A DNA stretch of 64,000 nt from an uncultured Coxiellaceae bacterium (lineage in GTDB: Bacteria; Pseudomonadota; Gammaproteobacteria; DSM-16500), in NCBI GenBank assembly GCA_964597435.1, contig CAZQXH010000007.1, positions 1 through 64,000 on the forward strand. The letters run 5' to 3'. A model generated the notes under the pieces. The model was not told where the DNA came from. It searched no databases and saw only the letters and a list, made by a program, of their open reading frames with translations. A program made the position numbers and the translations under genes. Below are positions 10,102 through 57,760 of this stretch, in pieces. The first letter of the stretch is position 1. The number at the start of each line of letters is the position of its first letter.

Positions 10102-11509
10102 ATTAAGGCGTGAATTAAGCGTTAGCATCCTCAGCATGATTGCCATTGGTGGCTCAATTGGCACCGGTGTTTTTTTAGCAAGTGGGCATGCACTTTACAT
10201 TGCAGGTCCCGGCGGCACGTTGCTGGTTTATACATTGACCGGCATCATGGCGTTTTTCTTGATGATGAGTTTAGGCGAAATGGCAGCGTTCATGCCGGTC
10301 AGCGGTTCGTTTGCGGCTTACGCCACGCGCTTTGTTGACCCTGCCTTTGGGTATGCGCTTGCTTGGAATTATTGGTATAGCTGGGCGATTACGGTAGCCG
10401 CTGAAATGGCAGCCGCAGCGCTAATCATGCAATATTGGTTTCCAGACAGCGCAGGCTTATTATGGTCAGCCCTATTTTTATCAGGGATCGTCCTTTGCAA
10501 CGCGCTCTCAACGCATGCGTTTGGTGTCGCTGAATATTGGTTTTCAGTGTTAAAAGTCGCCGTCATTTTAATTTTCATAGCCATTGGTTTTGCCATCGTG
10601 TTTGGTTTCACCTCTCATCCCACGATTGGTTTTAGGCATTGGCGAGAAGGTGATGCACCTTTCCACGGAGGAATAGCGACCCTTTTTCCCGCCTTTTTAA
10701 TTGCTGGTTTTTCTTTCCAAGGCACCGAATTAATTGGCATTGCAGCCGCAGAAAGCGCTAACCCCCATCGCGATGTACCGAAGGCTGTGCAGCAAATTTT
10801 TTGGCGTATTTTATTATTTTTTGTTTTGTCAGTCTTAGTAATTAGTTTAATGATTTCGCACACGGCCGAGCAATTGGCCGGCGAATCGGTTTTATTAAGC
10901 CCGTTCACACTGGCTTTTAAGCAAGTGGGCATTTCATTTGCCGCGAACTTAATGAATACCGTCGTATTAATCGCCATTTTATCCACCGGAAATTCCGGAT
11001 TATATGGTGCAACACGCATGTTATGGCATCTAGCCGAACAGGGCCATCTTCCTCCGTCGTTTGCGAAATTAAGTAAACGCGGCGTACCACTTGCGGCACT
11101 GGGTTTAACTAGCGTAGTCGCCATTTTTGCTTACCTGACTTCGTTTTACAGTAAGGGCAGCCTGTATCTCCTACTACTGAATGCAGCCGCTATTACCGGC
11201 TTTATCGCTTGGATGGGCATTGGTGTTTGCCACTATCGCTTCCGGAAAGCCTATGTGGCACAAGGCAGAGATTTATCCGCATTACCGTTTTTAGCGAAAG
11301 GGTTTCCTTTTAGTACCATTCTGGTCATTGGGTTATGCGCACTTGTCATTGCGGGTCAAAATTATCAAGCCTTTTTAGGGCAAACCATTAATTGGTACGA
11401 TGTTGTTCTGACTTATGCGGGAGTACCGGTTTTCTTTGCTATTTGGTTTGTTTATAAATATGCTAAAAAAACGCGATGGGTGAAGTTACACGAGGCATCG
11501 TTTGAGTAA
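10094..11509 (+). CDS. Amino acid permease (APC/AAT family). It overlaps the Rieske gene by 8 nt.
   Basis: Twelve TM helices and the GIGGSIGTGVFLASG-type N-terminal consensus (IAIGGSIGTGVFLASG). Confidence 0.75.
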   Translation: MPKLRRELSVSILSMIAIGGSIGTGVFLASGHALYIAGPGGTLLVYTLTGIMAFFLMMSLGEMAAFMPVSGSFAAYATRFVDPAFGYALAWNYWYSWAITVAAEMAAAALIMQYWFPDSAGLLWSALFLSGIVLCNALSTHAFGVAEYWFSVLKVAVILIFIAIGFAIVFGFTSHPTIGFRHWREGDAPFHGGIATLFPAFLIAGFSFQGTELIGIAAAESANPHRDVPKAVQQIFWRILLFFVLSVLVISLMISHTAEQLAGESVLLSPFTLAFKQVGISFAANLMNTVVLIAILSTGNSGLYGATRMLWHLAEQGHLPPSFAKLSKRGVPLAALGLTSVVAIFAYLTSFYSKGSLYLLLLNAAAITGFIAWMGIGVCHYRFRKAYVAQGRDLSALPFLAKGFPFSTILVIGLCALVIAGQNYQAFLGQTINWYDVVLTYAGVPVFFAIWFVYKYAKKTRWVKLHEASFE

Positions 11510-52012: not shown

Positions 52013-53124
52013 TGATAAGCCATGATTTTCGTGAATTAGCGAATGGCTTTATTCGTCAATTAACGCCGTATCAACCCGGCAAACCGTTAGAAGAATTACA
52101 ACGCGAATTGGGTATTGATGATGCTATCAAATTAGCCAGCAATGAAAATCCGCTAGGCGCGAGCCCTGCCGCAATCGCCGCAGGAATGAACGCACTCAAT
52201 CATGCCCACATTTATCCCGATGGGGGTTGCTTTGAATTAAAGCACGCCTTAGCCAACCATTTGCATGTAAAACCTGAACAATTAACCATGGGTAATGGTT
52301 CAGAAAATATCTTAGAATTAATTATTAAATCTTATCTGCATGCTGGCGATGAAGCAGTCATTTCGCAATATGCGTTTTTAACGATTCCCCTGTTATTACA
52401 AAGTTATGGTACTAACGTGCGTGTGACGCCTGCCAAAGAGTACGGCCATGATTTGAAAGCGATGCTCGCTGCCATTACCGATAAAACCCGCGTCATCTTT
52501 TTAGTTAATCCTAACAATCCAACCGGCACTTACACCCGTATTGAAGAATTTGAATCGTTTATGCAAGCTGTGCCAAAACACATTGTGGTAGTAGTGGATG
52601 AAGCGTATTCAGAATATATTGAAGCAGAAAACTATCCCAACACATTAAGTTATCTGCCGCATTATCCCAACTTAATCATCACGCGCACTTTTTCTAAAGT
52701 GTATGGACTCGCTGCTGTGCGCTTGGGTTTTTCCATTTCCTCATCTGAAATTGCGGATATTTTAAATCGCTCACGCCTACCCTTTAATGTTAACAGCATT
52801 GCCGCCGCCATGGGCATTGCGGCTTTATCCGATGACGAACACATTAAAAAAACCGTTGCATTGAATCGTTTAGGATTAATGGAATTAGCGCAAGGATTAA
52901 ATGCCTTAGCCATCCCGTTCATTCCTTCTATTTGTAATTTTATGACGGTAGATGTTGGCGATGGTAAAGCGGTTTATGAAACATTGTTACAAGCAGGCGT
53001 CATCGTGCGCCCCTTAAATGCGTATGGTTTACCCCGTCACATTCGTGTCACCACCGGTACTAGTGCACAAAATCAGCGTTTTTTAACAACGTTAAGTGCC
53101 ATTAAACAATCAGGGATGTTATGA
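52012..53124 (+). CDS. Histidinol-phosphate / aromatic amino acid aminotransferase (HisC family). It probably supplies 4-hydroxyphenylpyruvate.
   Basis: PLP class II fold; the lysine motif lies in TFSKVYGLAAVRLGF. The start ATG at 52012 overlaps the maiA stop (TAATG). Confidence 0.8.
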   Translation: MISHDFRELANGFIRQLTPYQPGKPLEELQRELGIDDAIKLASNENPLGASPAAIAAGMNALNHAHIYPDGGCFELKHALANHLHVKPEQLTMGNGSENILELIIKSYLHAGDEAVISQYAFLTIPLLLQSYGTNVRVTPAKEYGHDLKAMLAAITDKTRVIFLVNPNNPTGTYTRIEEFESFMQAVPKHIVVVVDEAYSEYIEAENYPNTLSYLPHYPNLIITRTFSKVYGLAAVRLGFSISSSEIADILNRSRLPFNVNSIAAAMGIAALSDDEHIKKTVALNRLGLMELAQGLNALAIPFIPSICNFMTVDVGDGKAVYETLLQAGVIVRPLNAYGLPRHIRVTTGTSAQNQRFLTTLSAIKQSGML

Positions 53125-54440
53125 CAATAACGTATCTACATGGCTTAGGAAATCACCACGAATCCAGTGCAATCAATGGTGCGTTGGTAGAAGGTTGTAA
53201 TTCACCGCAAAAAGTTCCATTTGGTTTATATGCGGAACAAATCAGCGGCTCAGCCTTTACGGTATCGCGTGCGAATAATTTACGTAGCTGGGTTTACCGC
53301 ATTCGCCCATCCGTTTTACACGGCGAATACCGCCCCCTTTCGCATCCTAATTTTCGTGGTGCACCCTTTAGCACAGACTATACGCCGCCCAATCCCATGC
53401 GCTGGAACCCCATGCCCTATTCAGAAAAAAAGCATGACTTGATCGATGGGTTATTCACTCTTGCAGGTCATGGTGACAACGCCCAGCAGACTGCAACCAG
53501 CATTCATTTTTACACTGCCACTTGCTCCATGCAGCGCTATTTTTCCAGTAGCGATGGCGAATGGTTAGTGGTACCGCAAGAAGGTGCATTACTGTTTCAC
53601 ACTGAATTCGGTTTGCTGGATGTTAAACCCGGTGAAATCATTGTTATTCCGCGCGGCATTAAATTTCGCGTCACGCTATTAGATGAAAAAGCCCGCGGGT
53701 ACATTTGTGAAAATGGTGGTTTACCGTTTCGTTTGCCGGATTTGGGATTAATTGGTGCCAATGGGCTTGCCAATCCACGTGATTTTAAAATTCCAACTGC
53801 TGCGTTTGAAACGACGGAAGGCGAGCTTGTGCACATCCAACATTATCAAGGTCGGTTATGGCAAACCGAGTTAACGCATTCGCCATTAGACGTGGTTGCT
53901 TGGCACGGCAATTATGTTCCCTACAAATATGATTTAAGTTTGTTTAATACCGTTAACACCGTGAGTTATGATCATCCCGATCCTTCTATTTTCACAGTAT
54001 TGACCTCTCCCTCTGCCCATCCTGGTATTGCACACGTGGATTTTGTGATTTTTCCACCACGCTGGATGGTTGCCGCGGATACCTTTCGCCCACCTTATTA
54101 TCACCGCAATGTCATGAGTGAATTCATGGGTTTGATTTACGGTGAATATGACGCAAAACCCACTGGTTTTACGCCAGGCGGAGCCAGCTTACATAATGCG
54201 ATGGTTGCACATGGGCCGGATGCTGAAGCTTATGAAAAAGCGATCCAATCGAACCTTGCGCCCCATTATTTAGATAAGACCTTAGCCTTTATGTTTGAAG
54301 CCCGCTCGCCCTGGTATATGACACAAAATGCCTATGAAGCACCCTTCAGACAAAATAATTATCAATCCTGCTGGCAAGGCTTATCTTCGCACTTTAAGGC
54401 CCAGGGCACGGAAGGGGCGACCCACAATTTGTCGGTCTAA
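53121..54440 (+). CDS. hmgA: Homogentisate 1,2-dioxygenase.
   Basis: 439 aa with HGD family similarity throughout. Confidence 0.9.
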   Translation: MTITYLHGLGNHHESSAINGALVEGCNSPQKVPFGLYAEQISGSAFTVSRANNLRSWVYRIRPSVLHGEYRPLSHPNFRGAPFSTDYTPPNPMRWNPMPYSEKKHDLIDGLFTLAGHGDNAQQTATSIHFYTATCSMQRYFSSSDGEWLVVPQEGALLFHTEFGLLDVKPGEIIVIPRGIKFRVTLLDEKARGYICENGGLPFRLPDLGLIGANGLANPRDFKIPTAAFETTEGELVHIQHYQGRLWQTELTHSPLDVVAWHGNYVPYKYDLSLFNTVNTVSYDHPDPSIFTVLTSPSAHPGIAHVDFVIFPPRWMVAADTFRPPYYHRNVMSEFMGLIYGEYDAKPTGFTPGGASLHNAMVAHGPDAEAYEKAIQSNLAPHYLDKTLAFMFEARSPWYMTQNAYEAPFRQNNYQSCWQGLSSHFKAQGTEGATHNLSV

Positions 54441-54449
54441 TTCGTAATT

Positions 54450-55142
54450 TCATGGCCGACAACGAAGAACATTTTCCTCTCTGTTTTCATTCTTCGCTGA
54501 GTGTTGAATATCCAGTATCCTGGCTAGTTCGGTCGCATTCTTATCTGCCACACCCAGGTTATTTATAAATCTGATAAAGGGAATGCAGTTCTCCCGCGCG
54601 TAACGTTCGGCGCTGTCAGCCATAAGCTTTTTTTGCGTATCATATTGCCTGACGCTTTCAGAATCATTGTCATCGCTGCGACCGCGCTTTTCCATGTAGC
54701 TCAGCCAGGTCGCCTTATCTGTTTCAACTAGCACCAATACATCGGGCCGGCACGATTCATCAACCCAGTTTCGTTCGGATAATGTTTGCAATTGTGACTT
54801 TTCCTGGGTGTTTATGAGGCCATACCACCACTGCATACTGGTTGCATTAATCAATTCTTTATTTACTAAAAATATACCAGCATCAGCCACGGTTTTATGG
54901 CCTTGTTTTGCTAGCGCGCGGGCTTCGCGGAATTTACTGACATTGGAGCGACATACCCAGTTTTCTATTCTGCCGACCTGCTCCCTCCAATCTTTATTAC
55001 GATCAATGTCCCATTCGTCTTCACCTGGTTCAATGAATACTTTTGCACCGATCTGCTCCGCCAGGGATTTGGCCAGCGTGGATTTACCTACGCCGGGGAG
55101 GCCGATTAATCCGATAAACATGCCTTCCGTTCTATTCTGCAT
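54450..55142 (-). CDS. Deoxynucleoside kinase family (dNK, dGK/dAK-like) P-loop kinase.
   Basis: P-loop GLPGVGKST plus the dNK motif LVLVETDKATWLSYMEKRGRSDDNDSE, compared with B. subtilis dGK FIIYIKASLPTLLHRIEKRGRPFE. Confidence 0.6.
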   Translation of the reverse strand: MQNRTEGMFIGLIGLPGVGKSTLAKSLAEQIGAKVFIEPGEDEWDIDRNKDWREQVGRIENWVCRSNVSKFREARALAKQGHKTVADAGIFLVNKELINATSMQWWYGLINTQEKSQLQTLSERNWVDESCRPDVLVLVETDKATWLSYMEKRGRSDDNDSESVRQYDTQKKLMADSAERYARENCIPFIRFINNLGVADKNATELARILDIQHSAKNENREENVLRCRP

Positions 55143-55450
55143 TTAAGGTTTCACTCCAATTAATTTGGTAAAAGAAACGACCTGGACTACCTGTAAAGTG
55201 AAGCCTAATTTTTAAGTAGCAAACCATGCAAGGCTAACGTCAATATCAGCAACAATTATTTTGATATCGTATCGTTAATTACACCGTTAAGTTTTCGGTA
55301 TGTGAAGCACTTCCATCACGCGGCGCGAAACAACCGTTATCAGTGCTTGTTGGTGGAAAAGCATCGGTCGATATTGTATTTCTACTGACTTACCGGCCCT
55401 TTACTTGTTTAAGTTTAGTGCAATAGGTGTATATTCGTCTAGAAAGTTCA

Positions 55451-55549
55451 TTGAGTTTTGGTCGAATACCACCTATACTACATTTAGCTCATCTACCATG
55501 TGTAGAAGGAGTAACGAAGCCGTTCGCAAGGGCGGCTTTAGCTTTTTTT
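55451..55549 (+). ncRNA. Candidate small RNA of about 64 nt. A near-consensus sigma70 promoter (TTGAGT-17-TATACT) is followed about 40 nt later by an intrinsic terminator. The RNA is convergent with, and overlaps, the 3' end of gene 55538..56041.
   Basis: -35 at 55451-55456 and -10 at 55474-55479. The terminator stem AAGCCG/CGGCTT spans 55517-55538, followed by a T7 tract at 55543-55549. The transcript carries a 5-bp hairpin TCTAC/GTAGA and an AAGGAG with no start codon after it. Confidence 0.35.
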
Positions 55550-56041
55550 GGTACCATTGGCTTTACAATAATCCTCATATTCTTTTAATAATTTTCTCTG
55601 ACGATGAGGTTGCTCTACTGGGTATGCAGTCCAGGGAAGTATATAATTATTACGTTCTGCCAAGATAACCAGATAGCTTTCTTTAGCGAACCACAGACAA
55701 ATTCTCCGCTCTCCATTGCGTTCATTTTGCCAAATTTTAATATTTGAGTTGTCGTTACTTTCAATAATTGGGCGTGGCCAGCGTATACGCTCACATCGCC
55801 TTATATCAGGAATTCGCTCGCTTTCTATCGCCCCCTCCTGAATCATGTGCCAAAAAGTTGCTTCCTTTCCATTTATCTCAGGATGGCGCTTTAAACCTAA
55901 TCGTCTTCCTTGAAATACTGGCTTTGTATCAACGAAATCATTCTTAAACCATGAATAAAGAGCATTTAGATATGCATCCCAATCTCCGCTATGATCCGTG
56001 AACAGAACAAGTGGCGGCAATACAAATGATGAACTATTCAT
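55538..56041 (-). CDS. Hypothetical protein (about 167 aa), translationally coupled 2 nt downstream of the DUF3800-like gene.
   Basis: The ATG at 56041 (MNSSSFVLPP) is preferred; the track start at 56065 is a TTG. No recognisable domain. Confidence 0.45.
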   Translation of the reverse strand: MNSSSFVLPPLVLFTDHSGDWDAYLNALYSWFKNDFVDTKPVFQGRRLGLKRHPEINGKEATFWHMIQEGAIESERIPDIRRCERIRWPRPIIESNDNSNIKIWQNERNGERRICLWFAKESYLVILAERNNYILPWTAYPVEQPHRQRKLLKEYEDYCKANGTKKS

Positions 56042-56043
56042 TA

Positions 56044-56751
56044 TTAAATCTCCGTCGCATGCCAACGGAAAAGATTAATCTTTTCTTCTCTTAATAAGGT
56101 TGTTTTTGTCAAGCTATAACCTGATCTTTGCCGTATTCGATTAATAATTGCCACTTTTCCAGTATTAGTATGTAATTCTCTATTAACATATGAAATAGCA
56201 CCAATTAATAAATCCGCTAATTGCAATTGTTCAATTTCATTAGAATGCACCAACTGCAAGCGTTCAATTATCTGTCGTGAAAAATCGTACATGTTGTTGC
56301 ATAGCACTTCATGCAACTTATGAACCTTTTGAGCACCTCGTGTATCTTTAATATCTAAATAAATTCGATAACAGTTATGTGGCCAAAGAATAGCTTTCAA
56401 CATATCAAAGTACATTTTGTAGTACCAACTGTCATGATCTTGGCCAAGAAAAGCGTCATGGCGTAATAAGGTTTTATCGGGAACAATTAAGGCGCGGAAA
56501 CGTACATCATCGTTATCAAAAAAATAATCAATAATATCCAAATAGAGATCAGTTTTAGCAGGAGATACTTTCACCCATTTAATTTCAAAATTGGGTGATA
56601 ATCCATGTTTCTGCTTGATTTCGCGAACACGGGTCGCAATTTCTCGAGTTTTATCTAATGGACACCAGATAGCACCCAGCACCATTACCTTCTGGCTATC
56701 GTTTTGCAAATGACAAGATTCATCGCAATAAACATTCATAATCTGCGCCAT
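56044..56751 (-). CDS. DUF3800-like protein (235 aa).
   Basis: The N-terminal M(AQI)MNVYCDES motif resembles the DUF3800 start (xIYIDESG). The ATG at 56751 has GAGAGG 6 nt upstream; the track start at 56754 is a GTG. Confidence 0.5.
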   Translation of the reverse strand: MAQIMNVYCDESCHLQNDSQKVMVLGAIWCPLDKTREIATRVREIKQKHGLSPNFEIKWVKVSPAKTDLYLDIIDYFFDNDDVRFRALIVPDKTLLRHDAFLGQDHDSWYYKMYFDMLKAILWPHNCYRIYLDIKDTRGAQKVHKLHEVLCNNMYDFSRQIIERLQLVHSNEIEQLQLADLLIGAISYVNRELHTNTGKVAIINRIRQRSGYSLTKTTLLREEKINLFRWHATEI

Positions 56752-56965
56752 CACACCTCTCTATCTGGCCTTGAGCCACTTCCATTAAATGGGCAATAAT
56801 TTCAGGCAAATAAACCAAAAAAGCAAGCTAATATACAGCAAAATCCTAGCCCACTCAGATTAAGCTTTTTAAGAGCGAAATGCTTTCTATCGGCTAGAAT
56901 ATAAGTATAGTATTTAGGAACTAAATGATTAATTATTTGCCAAATTTATGAAAAGGGGGGAGATT

Positions 56966-57760
56966 ATGGCACTAAAAAAAGTATCTAAATACGTTGCCAA
57001 GCCCGTGGACGACAATGGTTACACGCAATATACACCAGAAGAAGATGCCGTTTGGCAGGAATTAATTACCCGTCAAATTCCCATTGTGACGGGGCGTGCT
57101 TGTGATGAATACATGCGTGGCATTGAATTATTGAACCTTTCGCACGATCGGATTCCGCAATGCCCTGATGTGTCTAACGTGTTACGCGAAACAACGGGGT
57201 GGGCATTAGCTCCCGTCCCTGCCTTGATCCCATTTGATCGCTTTTTTGAATTACTAGCGAATCGCCAATTCCCGGCAGCTACCTTCATTCGTACCCGCGA
57301 AGAGTTAGATTATTTGCAAGAACCTGATATTTTCCACGAAATTTTTGGCCATTGTCCCATGTTGACCAACCCCGCGTGTGCGGATTTTACCCACACGTAC
57401 GGCCAACTCGGGGTCAAGGCAAAACATGAAGATCAAGTGATGCTTGCGAAGCTTTATTGGTTTACCATTGAATTTGGCCTGATTCAAACAAGGCAAGGTC
57501 CGCGTGTGTACGGTGGTGGTATTTTATCTTCCAAAAATGAAACACAATATTGCTTGGAAGATCCCCGCGTCATTCGCAAACCGTTTGATGTGCTGGATGT
57601 CTTACGGACCCCGTATCGCATCGACATCATGCAGCCTGTTTATTTTATGATTAGCGATTTTAATGATTTGTACCGATTAATTGACATGGATTTAATCGGT
57701 TTAATTAATGAAGCTCGGAAAATGGGCATGCATACCCCACTTTATCCGAAAAAAACATGA
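56966..57760 (+). CDS. phhA: Phenylalanine 4-hydroxylase.
   Basis: Biopterin-dependent aromatic amino acid hydroxylase catalytic domain, 264 aa. The ATG at 56966 has the RBS AAAGGGGGGA. Confidence 0.9.
   Translation: MALKKVSKYVAKPVDDNGYTQYTPEEDAVWQELITRQIPIVTGRACDEYMRGIELLNLSHDRIPQCPDVSNVLRETTGWALAPVPALIPFDRFFELLANRQFPAATFIRTREELDYLQEPDIFHEIFGHCPMLTNPACADFTHTYGQLGVKAKHEDQVMLAKLYWFTIEFGLIQTRQGPRVYGGGILSSKNETQYCLEDPRVIRKPFDVLDVLRTPYRIDIMQPVYFMISDFNDLYRLIDMDLIGLINEARKMGMHTPLYPKKT

Follow-up and report, generated by a model that had tools for sequence, protein, structure and literature searches.

The 64-kb window analysed here (the whole stretch of 64,000 nt, positions 1 to 64,000 of contig CAZQXH010000007.1 from an uncultured Coxiellaceae bacterium) contains a tyrosine-catabolism operon ending with hmgA (53121-54440, plus strand), followed by phhA (56948-57760, plus strand). 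These two genes bracket three open reading frames (ORFs) on the minus strand, two of which very probably encode the chromosomal counterpart of the RlfA and RlfB proteins of phage P1 and of the PADLOC defence candidate PDC-M04. An earlier sequence-only reading had placed three minus-strand genes between the hmg operon and phhA, which our analysis confirmed with all features and coordinates. Relatives of the locus are designated by L numbers throughout. The features of the region are as follows:

54450-55142, minus strand: dNK-like P-loop kinase of 230 amino acids (aa), assigned to a separate and older accessory insertion
55538-56041, minus strand: rlfB (PDC-M04B), 167 aa counted from ATG, coupled to rlfA with a 2-nt spacer
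56044-56751, minus strand: rlfA (PDC-M04A), DUF3800 protein of 235 aa from ATG, start in agreement with gene callers
55451-55479, plus strand: sigma-70-type promoter of a small RNA (sRNA) gene, TTGAGT-17 nt-TATACT, from a promoter scan
55484-55515, plus strand: near-invariant 5' hairpin of the sRNA, GCUC-A-UCUAC-CAUGU-GUAGA-AG-GAGU, from covariance model R1
55516-55549, plus strand: intrinsic terminator of the sRNA, GAAGCCG...CGGCUUU plus U-run, from a terminator scan
55435-56848: core mobile cassette with the rlfA upstream region, rlfA, rlfB and the sRNA gene, delimited by blastn and GC content
55160-56873: segment present in the window and missing from the close relative L218, giving the boundaries of the later insertion or replacement

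The two cassette genes are tightly coupled, the rlfA stop codon TAA (56046-56044) lying 2 nt ahead of the rlfB ATG (56041), with a GGAG sequence 8 nt upstream of that ATG. A gap of 395 nt (55143-55537) parts rlfB from the kinase gene. GC content amounts to 0.355 and 0.393 in the two coupled genes, compared with 0.445-0.466 in hmgA, the kinase gene and phhA. Direct or inverted repeats and target-site duplications around the insert appeared only as chance-level matches, and no tandem repeats were found in 54200-57200.

RlfA matches Pfam family PF12686 with 60.1 bits at a cut-off of 21 (E 5.2e-16) over profile positions 1-148 of 149, bearing out the DUF3800 assignment of the sequence-only reading. 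Characteristic residues are D10 and E11 in an N-terminal YCDES, D133/D136, and Q177 and D180 in a QLAD (QxxD) motif; D10-E11 and QxxD are invariant among 43 aligned homologues, as are D133/D136. An N-terminal DE and a C-terminal QxxD have been described for DUF3800 proteins (PMC7736814), and the literature predicts an RNase H-like fold for this domain. With its carboxylate motifs intact, RlfA is a predicted RNase H-like nuclease. More than 7850 RlfA homologues were found, the best 120 being 73-91% identical. A sequence search of the PDB with profiles of RlfA and RlfB yielded no match.

In PADLOC, both component profiles of PDC-M04 are matched by adjacent genes on the same strand, 2 nt apart: PDC-M04A by RlfA (323 bits, E 2.2e-97) and PDC-M04B by RlfB (237 bits, E 2e-71). 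The PADLOC check proposed with the sequence-only reading thus returned the pair as a two-gene defence candidate. PDC systems are a set of 145 candidates, recognised by the position of their genes within BREX, DISARM or type I restriction-modification (RM) operons (bioRxiv 10.1101/2024.01.29.577857); our literature search found no paper mentioning PDC-M04. RlfA and RlfB of P1 match the same PADLOC profiles as the window proteins, and BLASTP aligns the window proteins with them at 53% identity for RlfA (E 1e-92) and 37% for RlfB (E 9e-34). Likewise, tblastn against phage and plasmid records found the window RlfB homologous to P1 RlfB and P7 RapB (E ~1e-24), with homologues in 102 plasmid records, nearly all from E. 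coli and Salmonella, and in 9 phage records. The P1 record places the pair after repL/oriL behind the C1 operator Orlf, with rlfA ending where rlfB starts, and the P1 annotation "possibly associated with lytic replication" derives solely from this position. Neither gene is required for the lytic growth of P1 according to CRISPR interference (CRISPRi) (PMC10695390), and P1-like elements have lost rlfAB via insertion sequence (IS) insertions without apparent harm (PMC6906374).

RlfB, for which the sequence-only reading had recognised no family, has no Pfam or NCBIfam match but belongs with PADLOC PDC-M04B, with P1 RlfB and with PHROG 16230, labelled "replication protein". Detectable homologues number 2045, and a profile search of 1.84 billion cluster representatives gave 1520 RlfB clusters at 50% identity. 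Named sources among the best 120 homologues of RlfA and of RlfB are Gammaproteobacteria, Deltaproteobacteria-type lineages and Chloroflexi. RlfB is nearly always a stand-alone protein of 155-180 aa; domain fusions that might hint at its function were absent, virtually all of the best 150 of the 1520 clusters being stand-alone. Residues P9, H65 and R82 are invariant. The AlphaFold2 (AF2) model of RlfB is of moderate quality and gave no informative match among solved or viral structures. Searches of Pfam, NCBIfam and PADLOC matched neither RlfA nor RlfB to a known toxin or antitoxin.

The third component is a candidate sRNA gene of ~65 nt that is convergent with rlfB, its terminator overlapping the rlfB stop and last codons on the opposite strand. 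Past the rlfB stop, P1 shares 23 of 24 nt with the window, although RlfB is only 37% identical. Promoter elements (-35/-10) with 17-nt spacing are found at the same position in L084, L086, L087, L088, L094, L096 and P1; the spacer sequence varies, and the -10 element ends 5-8 nt before the hairpin in these loci. The minimum free energy fold of 55484-55547 consists of two hairpins (-23.6 kcal/mol, z -3.3), and the terminator stem displays compensatory changes in P1 and L086. Covariance model R1 has a single strong match in the 64-kb window (54.5 bits, E 1e-11) and one match just 3' of rlfB in each related locus, among them Bifidobacterium phage Bbif-1 with 30.8 bits and a plasmid of Bacteroides finegoldii with 19.3 bits, where the loop has 4 nt. 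The hairpin lies within at most ~100 nt of the rlfB stop in 31 of 32 non-identical rlfB genes, 29 times convergent and twice co-directional, and it is present in 11 of 12 loci fetched by protein similarity alone, which come from Bacteroidota, an Actinobacteria phage and Proteobacteria. The sequence-only reading had reported the sRNA as a separate finding; we regard the convergent sRNA gene as a predicted, conserved part of the same cassette.

By pair counts, 96.9% of the cells in the hairpin alignment are paired, and compensatory changes affect three pairs. Most sequences of this alignment were collected by sequence pattern, which limits the visible variation, and the covariation evidence is therefore modest. 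Two stem pairs show G-U wobbles, one in 28 and the other in 4 of 71 distinct sequences. Because these wobbles would be C-A mismatches on the other strand, the conserved element is very probably an RNA read from the plus strand of the window. An Rfam scan of 55440-55600 remained without a match even at E up to 10, and at the gathering score no family was placed at the hairpin positions of 14 related loci. Nothing is annotated at the RNA position in the P1 and JL22 records, and a full-text literature search for the RNA sequence found no paper, so that the RNA gene is apparently undescribed in the sources searched. When the rlfAB mRNA was searched for a site at which the sRNA might pair in trans, no position proved to be conserved, and type I-like antisense control was set aside on this ground.

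Relatives of the locus were collected by a PhhA scan of one genome per GTDB species, which yielded 80 loci. The best of them are metagenome-assembled genomes (MAGs) of uncultured Coxiellaceae with 63-74% PhhA identity; no Legionella genome is found among these 80 best PhhA loci. The organism accordingly looks Coxiellaceae-like, and the Legionella attribution of the sequence-only reading finds no support. In the Coxiellaceae MAGs L001, L002 and L006 (PhhA 67-74% identical), which are among the nearest genomes found, phhA directly follows hmgA with a gap of ~8-70 nt, and the block hpd-fah-maiA-aminotransferase-hmgA-phhA-phhB is uninterrupted, in agreement with the proposed accessory insertion between housekeeping blocks. 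Homologues of the kinase, RlfA or RlfB are absent from all 80 PhhA-related loci. The accessory-module claim had been made to depend on two points, and both held: the gene pair is not a conserved feature of this locus in relatives, and the DUF3800 profile is supported.

A close relative, the Logan assembly L218, displays the order phhA, 268 nt, kinase, hmgA and lacks rlfAB. Its DNA is 91% identical to the window over 57800-56884 and 87% over 55159-54000; between the two aligned blocks only ~140 unrelated nt are found, and window 55160-56873 stands in their place. Because L218 has the kinase alone between hmgA and phhA, the kinase insertion is the older one and the rlfAB segment a later, separate arrival. 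The three-gene insert, conceived by the sequence-only reading as one module, thus resolves into two events, and it is a composite in which the cassette landed beside an unrelated older kinase insertion, splitting the hmgA-phhA junction. Just upstream of phhA, L218 carries a ~19-nt tandem duplication containing TTTTAGCCGATAGAAA (946-990), exactly where homology to the window stops (window 56874-56896), and this duplication may be the footprint of the insertion or replacement event.

The cassette itself is shared with unrelated genomes at the DNA level. By blastn it is 83% identical to L094 over 1417 nt and 68-79% identical to L084, L086, L087, L088, L089 and L096. The alignments run ~50-100 nt beyond the rlfB stop in every related locus, and the one with L094 also begins ~100 nt upstream of rlfA. 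The cassette is a horizontal acquisition. In relatives, phhA-phhB adjoin the hmg operon directly; the insertions have cut them off from it, so that transcription of phhA must now start from a separate promoter. A plus-strand promoter-like site (TTGAGC-18 nt-AATAAT, 56771-56800) lies in the cassette upstream region, ~150 nt before phhA. At the other end, a stretch of ~275 nt (55160-55434) separates the sRNA promoter from the start of the kinase gene; it is neither present in L218 nor found in any other rlfAB locus, and it may include the present kinase promoter.

The kinase scores above the cut-off for AAA_33 and just below that for Pfam dNK (PF01712; 26.3 bits, cut-off 27). Among solved structures it comes closest to the deoxyguanosine kinases 2jaq and 2jas, with full-length alignments (E 2e-6). 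The family is rare, with 20 homologues among 5.8 billion proteins, the closest being that of L218 (86% identity). A more distant homologue in L221 lies among transposase and resolvase genes, and the kinase therefore seems to be an accessory gene that is mobile independently of the cassette. It was rejected as a part of the cassette system, L218 carrying the kinase without rlfAB.

Elsewhere, the pair occupies defence-type surroundings. In L088-L091 it is enclosed by the hsdS and hsdR genes of a type I RM operon, with toxin-antitoxin genes and an AAA_15/21 ATPase in the vicinity; in L087 it lies beside MmeI-like, DEAD, T5orf172 and reverse-transcriptase genes, with an integrase at smpB. In the closest relatives, L094-L096 (84-91% RlfA identity), it is part of an island with integrase, type I RM, AlpA and primase-like genes. 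The embedding in L087, L088-L091 and L094-L096 is of the kind by which PDC systems were defined (bioRxiv 10.1101/2024.01.29.577857). A solo DUF3800 gene with 26% identity to RlfA was also observed between Q antiterminator and holin genes in a lambdoid element on an E. coli plasmid (L225:2971-3774); it has neither RlfB nor the hairpin RNA beside it and represents a different DUF3800 subfamily.

Collectively, these results make it very probable that the window pair is the chromosomal counterpart of P1 rlfA-rlfB and PADLOC PDC-M04 and that it has a three-part architecture. The window copy is one more copy of this catalogued, uncharacterised family; new here are the link to P1, the accompanying RNA gene and the wide distribution of orphan RNA copies in phages. 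A defence role is favoured because relatives reside in type I RM operons, in integrase islands and on P1. We therefore propose that the insert is a three-part, horizontally acquired cassette, counterpart of P1 rlfAB/PDC-M04, which would act in anti-phage defence or exclusion through an RNA-protein mechanism, and we assign this explanation as a whole a probability of roughly 50%. For its functional part, an anti-phage or exclusion module with toxin-antitoxin-like logic, the chances appear evenly balanced. The defence or toxin-antitoxin module suggested by the sequence-only reading accordingly stands as far as the PDC-M04 candidate and its relatives in RM operons and integrase islands are concerned, its function being drawn from genomic context.

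A specific mechanism can be put forward only tentatively. Proteins and RNA would work as a single unit, in which the RNA is made constitutively and, on binding to the two proteins, serves the nuclease as cofactor or inhibitor; infection would then disturb the RNA-to-protein balance and unleash nuclease activity. The RNA is more likely to bind the proteins than to pair in antisense, given its invariant hairpin, its unfixed orientation relative to rlfB and the lack of a conserved pairing site. A more far-reaching version, which we consider rather improbable, holds that RlfA, RlfB and the sRNA constitute an unrecognised RNA-dependent immune module with P1 rlfAB as its founding member, that the RNA holds RlfA or RlfB in check in the manner of a type III antitoxin or cofactor, and that the orphan copies in the tRNA clusters of phages are decoys neutralising the system; an anti-defence role of orphan phage copies is speculation.

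Several observations weigh against a defence role of the cassette or against the way it is thought to work. PDC-M04 and RlfAB have candidate status only with respect to both defence and toxicity. The window cassette lies within a metabolic operon and not in a defence island, and the neighbours of the pair in L084 are ordinary-looking and of housekeeping type. Both proteins are, judging from their homologues (best 120 of each 65-91% identical), unusually conserved across phyla, which is atypical for fast-evolving immune genes. The AF2 model of RlfA is poor (pLDDT 51.6), too poor for a fold search. Which component is toxic we can only infer, and the two hints on the toxic part point in opposite directions. 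In L. pneumophila HL77S, a strain-specific DUF3800 gene beside an integrase scored as essential by Tn-seq, while two unannotated downstream genes did not (PMC7811196), a possible hint at toxin-antitoxin-like behaviour; the HL77S gene is classified at the level of the DUF3800 domain. In L086 (7286-8000), rlfA contains at least three frameshifts, whereas the RNA gene and rlfB are intact, the latter with every invariant residue preserved. This locus lies in a transposase-rich region of a 764-kb contig, and its state may reflect real decay or a long-read assembly error; unless the frameshifts are assembly errors, it speaks against a simple scheme with RlfA as antitoxin of RlfB.

A further point of this kind concerns the RNA itself. 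A 24-nt hairpin pattern searched in IMG/VR was found on 118 contigs (L100-L217), at least 28 of which carry rlfAB beside the hairpin. The remaining 76 unique viral loci have no DUF3800 or RlfB neighbour according to a Pfam scan of 118 flanking ORFs, and the RNA may therefore have a function of its own. Such orphan loci (e.g. L126:7204-7235, L128:10577-10608, L114:348-379), in which a second, variable hairpin follows, span GC contents of 0.29-0.59. In 24 of the 76, a tRNA gene is located within 300 nt, the hairpin lying in some cases directly between two tRNA genes; some also have ROOL, abiF or DUF3800-VIII RNAs nearby. No Rfam family covers the orphan hairpin.

Two arrangements among the viral loci were recorded in addition. 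In L124:749-843, as well as in L130, L154, L192, L201 and L210, the hairpin-plus-terminator unit is present in two tandem copies, the second of which has diverged (CUCAUGUAC...GUACAAAGAG) with a compensatory C-G to G-C change; a DUF3800-VIII RNA (RF03075, 45.5 bits) follows ~90 nt downstream on the same strand in this group. In L112, an abiF RNA motif (RF03085, 10230-10266) lies ~135 nt upstream of the hairpin RNA (10400-10431) on the same strand, which suggests that defence-linked small RNAs cluster in phages.

Among the other explanations, the orphan copies speak for an RNA-centred module of mobile elements, in which the sRNA would be the core and useful to phages, for example in a tRNA- or translation-related function, RlfA and RlfB would only process, stabilise or turn over the RNA, and chromosomal copies would be remnants of mobile elements rather than immune genes. 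The near-invariance of the hairpin across phyla, its occurrence without rlfAB in 76 viral loci, 24 of them near tRNA genes, the presence of rlfAB on P1-like phage-plasmids (102 plasmid and 9 phage records) and the general tie of DUF3800 genes to structured RNAs (PMC5737381) are all consistent with such a module. The embedding of the pair in type I RM operons and defence-rich islands of non-phage DNA points the other way, as does its dispensability for P1 lytic growth, and RNA maturation leaves the strong purifying selection on a phage-free chromosomal copy unexplained. We consider this explanation to have a rather low probability, about that of the immune module with decoy RNAs.

Somewhat lower still ranks a purely selfish addiction cassette of the toxin-antitoxin type, stabilising itself and neighbouring DNA without an anti-phage role. 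The small size and translational coupling of the two genes, the transfer of the tiny, autonomous cassette from genome to genome as a unit of 1.4 kb, carriage by low-copy P1 plasmid prophages and the essential-gene signature of the strain-specific DUF3800 gene in L. pneumophila would fit this idea. It has to contend with the missing match to known toxin or antitoxin families in Pfam, NCBIfam and PADLOC, with the apparently harmless loss of rlfAB from P1-like elements by IS insertion (PMC6906374), and with L086, where rlfA is broken and rlfB intact. Many toxin-antitoxin systems also defend, however, so that addiction is not cleanly separable from the cassette explanation proposed above.

A replication accessory, as annotated in P1, is very unlikely: the P1 genes do follow immediately after repL/oriL, with the C1 operator Orlf ahead of them, and PHROG 16230 bears a replication label, but this annotation was made by position only, CRISPRi showed neither gene to be needed for the lytic growth of P1, and no replicon adjoins the pair in the window or in L084-L096. 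That kinase, rlfA and rlfB form one functional system, such as a nucleotide-modifying defence, is hardly credible, since against their adjacency on the same strand and weak, P-loop-level kinase matches to PADLOC PDC-M51B and VakA, which cover little beyond the Walker A region, stand the solitary kinase at the same site in L218, its absence from every other rlfAB locus examined, the 395-nt spacer with a convergent sRNA gene and terminator between kinase and rlfB, and the GC content of 0.466 in the kinase gene versus 0.355-0.393 in rlfAB.

Returning to the three-part cassette, its equation with P1 connects a defence candidate known from bioinformatics only with two long-unexplained genes of a model phage; as PDC-M04 is P1 rlfAB, the system becomes directly testable in E. 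coli. The pair is nearly always accompanied by an ultra-conserved small RNA gene, which neither Rfam nor the P1 annotation contains, and with an RNA as third component, constructs cloned without the RNA gene may fail or be toxic. The wide occurrence of this RNA in phages that do not encode the proteins beside it, frequently within tRNA arrays, leads to a decoy or arms-race hypothesis. It also offers a foothold on why DUF3800 proteins so often adjoin structured RNAs, a question since 2017.

Compared with known systems, the cassette is reminiscent of type III toxin-antitoxin systems (ToxIN, AbiEi-like logic), which likewise combine a protein module with a small structured non-coding RNA, are mobile and occur in defence-type contexts, and phage-borne RNA copies could act as decoys in both. 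Unlike there, the cassette RNA is a single hairpin gene, downstream and convergent, instead of upstream, processed tandem repeats, and the proteins have no homology to ToxN or AbiQ. Type II systems differ in that RlfA and RlfB have no recognisable toxin or antitoxin domain. With respect to type I systems, the overlap is confined to the terminator stem and the last rlfB codons, the RNA is co-directional in 2 of 31 loci, and RlfB is a 167-aa soluble-type protein and not a small hydrophobic toxin. Retron type VII, Cas12a2/Cas12a3 (TPR-DUF3800) and the Cas13 CASK locus (Csx32) share the DUF3800 domain, a predicted RNase H-like fold and RNA-linked immune loci; there, DUF3800 is fused or adjacent to a reverse transcriptase, a TPR domain or a Cas gene, whereas RlfA is a stand-alone protein of 235 aa, accompanied by RlfB and the sRNA.

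DUF3800 genes are associated with 11 other structured RNA motifs, DUF3800-I to -XI (Rfam RF02969, RF02968, RF03075 and others), which often end in a Rho-independent terminator (Weinberg et al. 2017, PMC5737381). These motifs resemble the cassette RNA as small structured RNAs adjoining a DUF3800 gene in either orientation, but none matches the cassette element even with permissive settings, and the cassette RNA is also frequent without a DUF3800 neighbour. PDC-M04 (Payne et al., guilt-by-embedding) agrees with the window pair in that relatives of the latter are embedded in type I RM operons; it was defined as two proteins only, with the conserved RNA gene outside the definition, and no defence system surrounds the window copy. 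P1 rlfA-rlfB (P7 rapA-rapB) is found on a phage-plasmid after repL under the C1 operator, in contrast to the chromosomal window pair, which lies in a tyrosine-catabolism operon without a nearby replicon or phage genes, and P1 RlfB is 13 aa shorter. Yet both proteins are homologous, gene order and tight coupling are the same, and P1 shares the hairpin-plus-terminator RNA gene convergent to rlfB, identical to that of the window in 23 of 24 nt.

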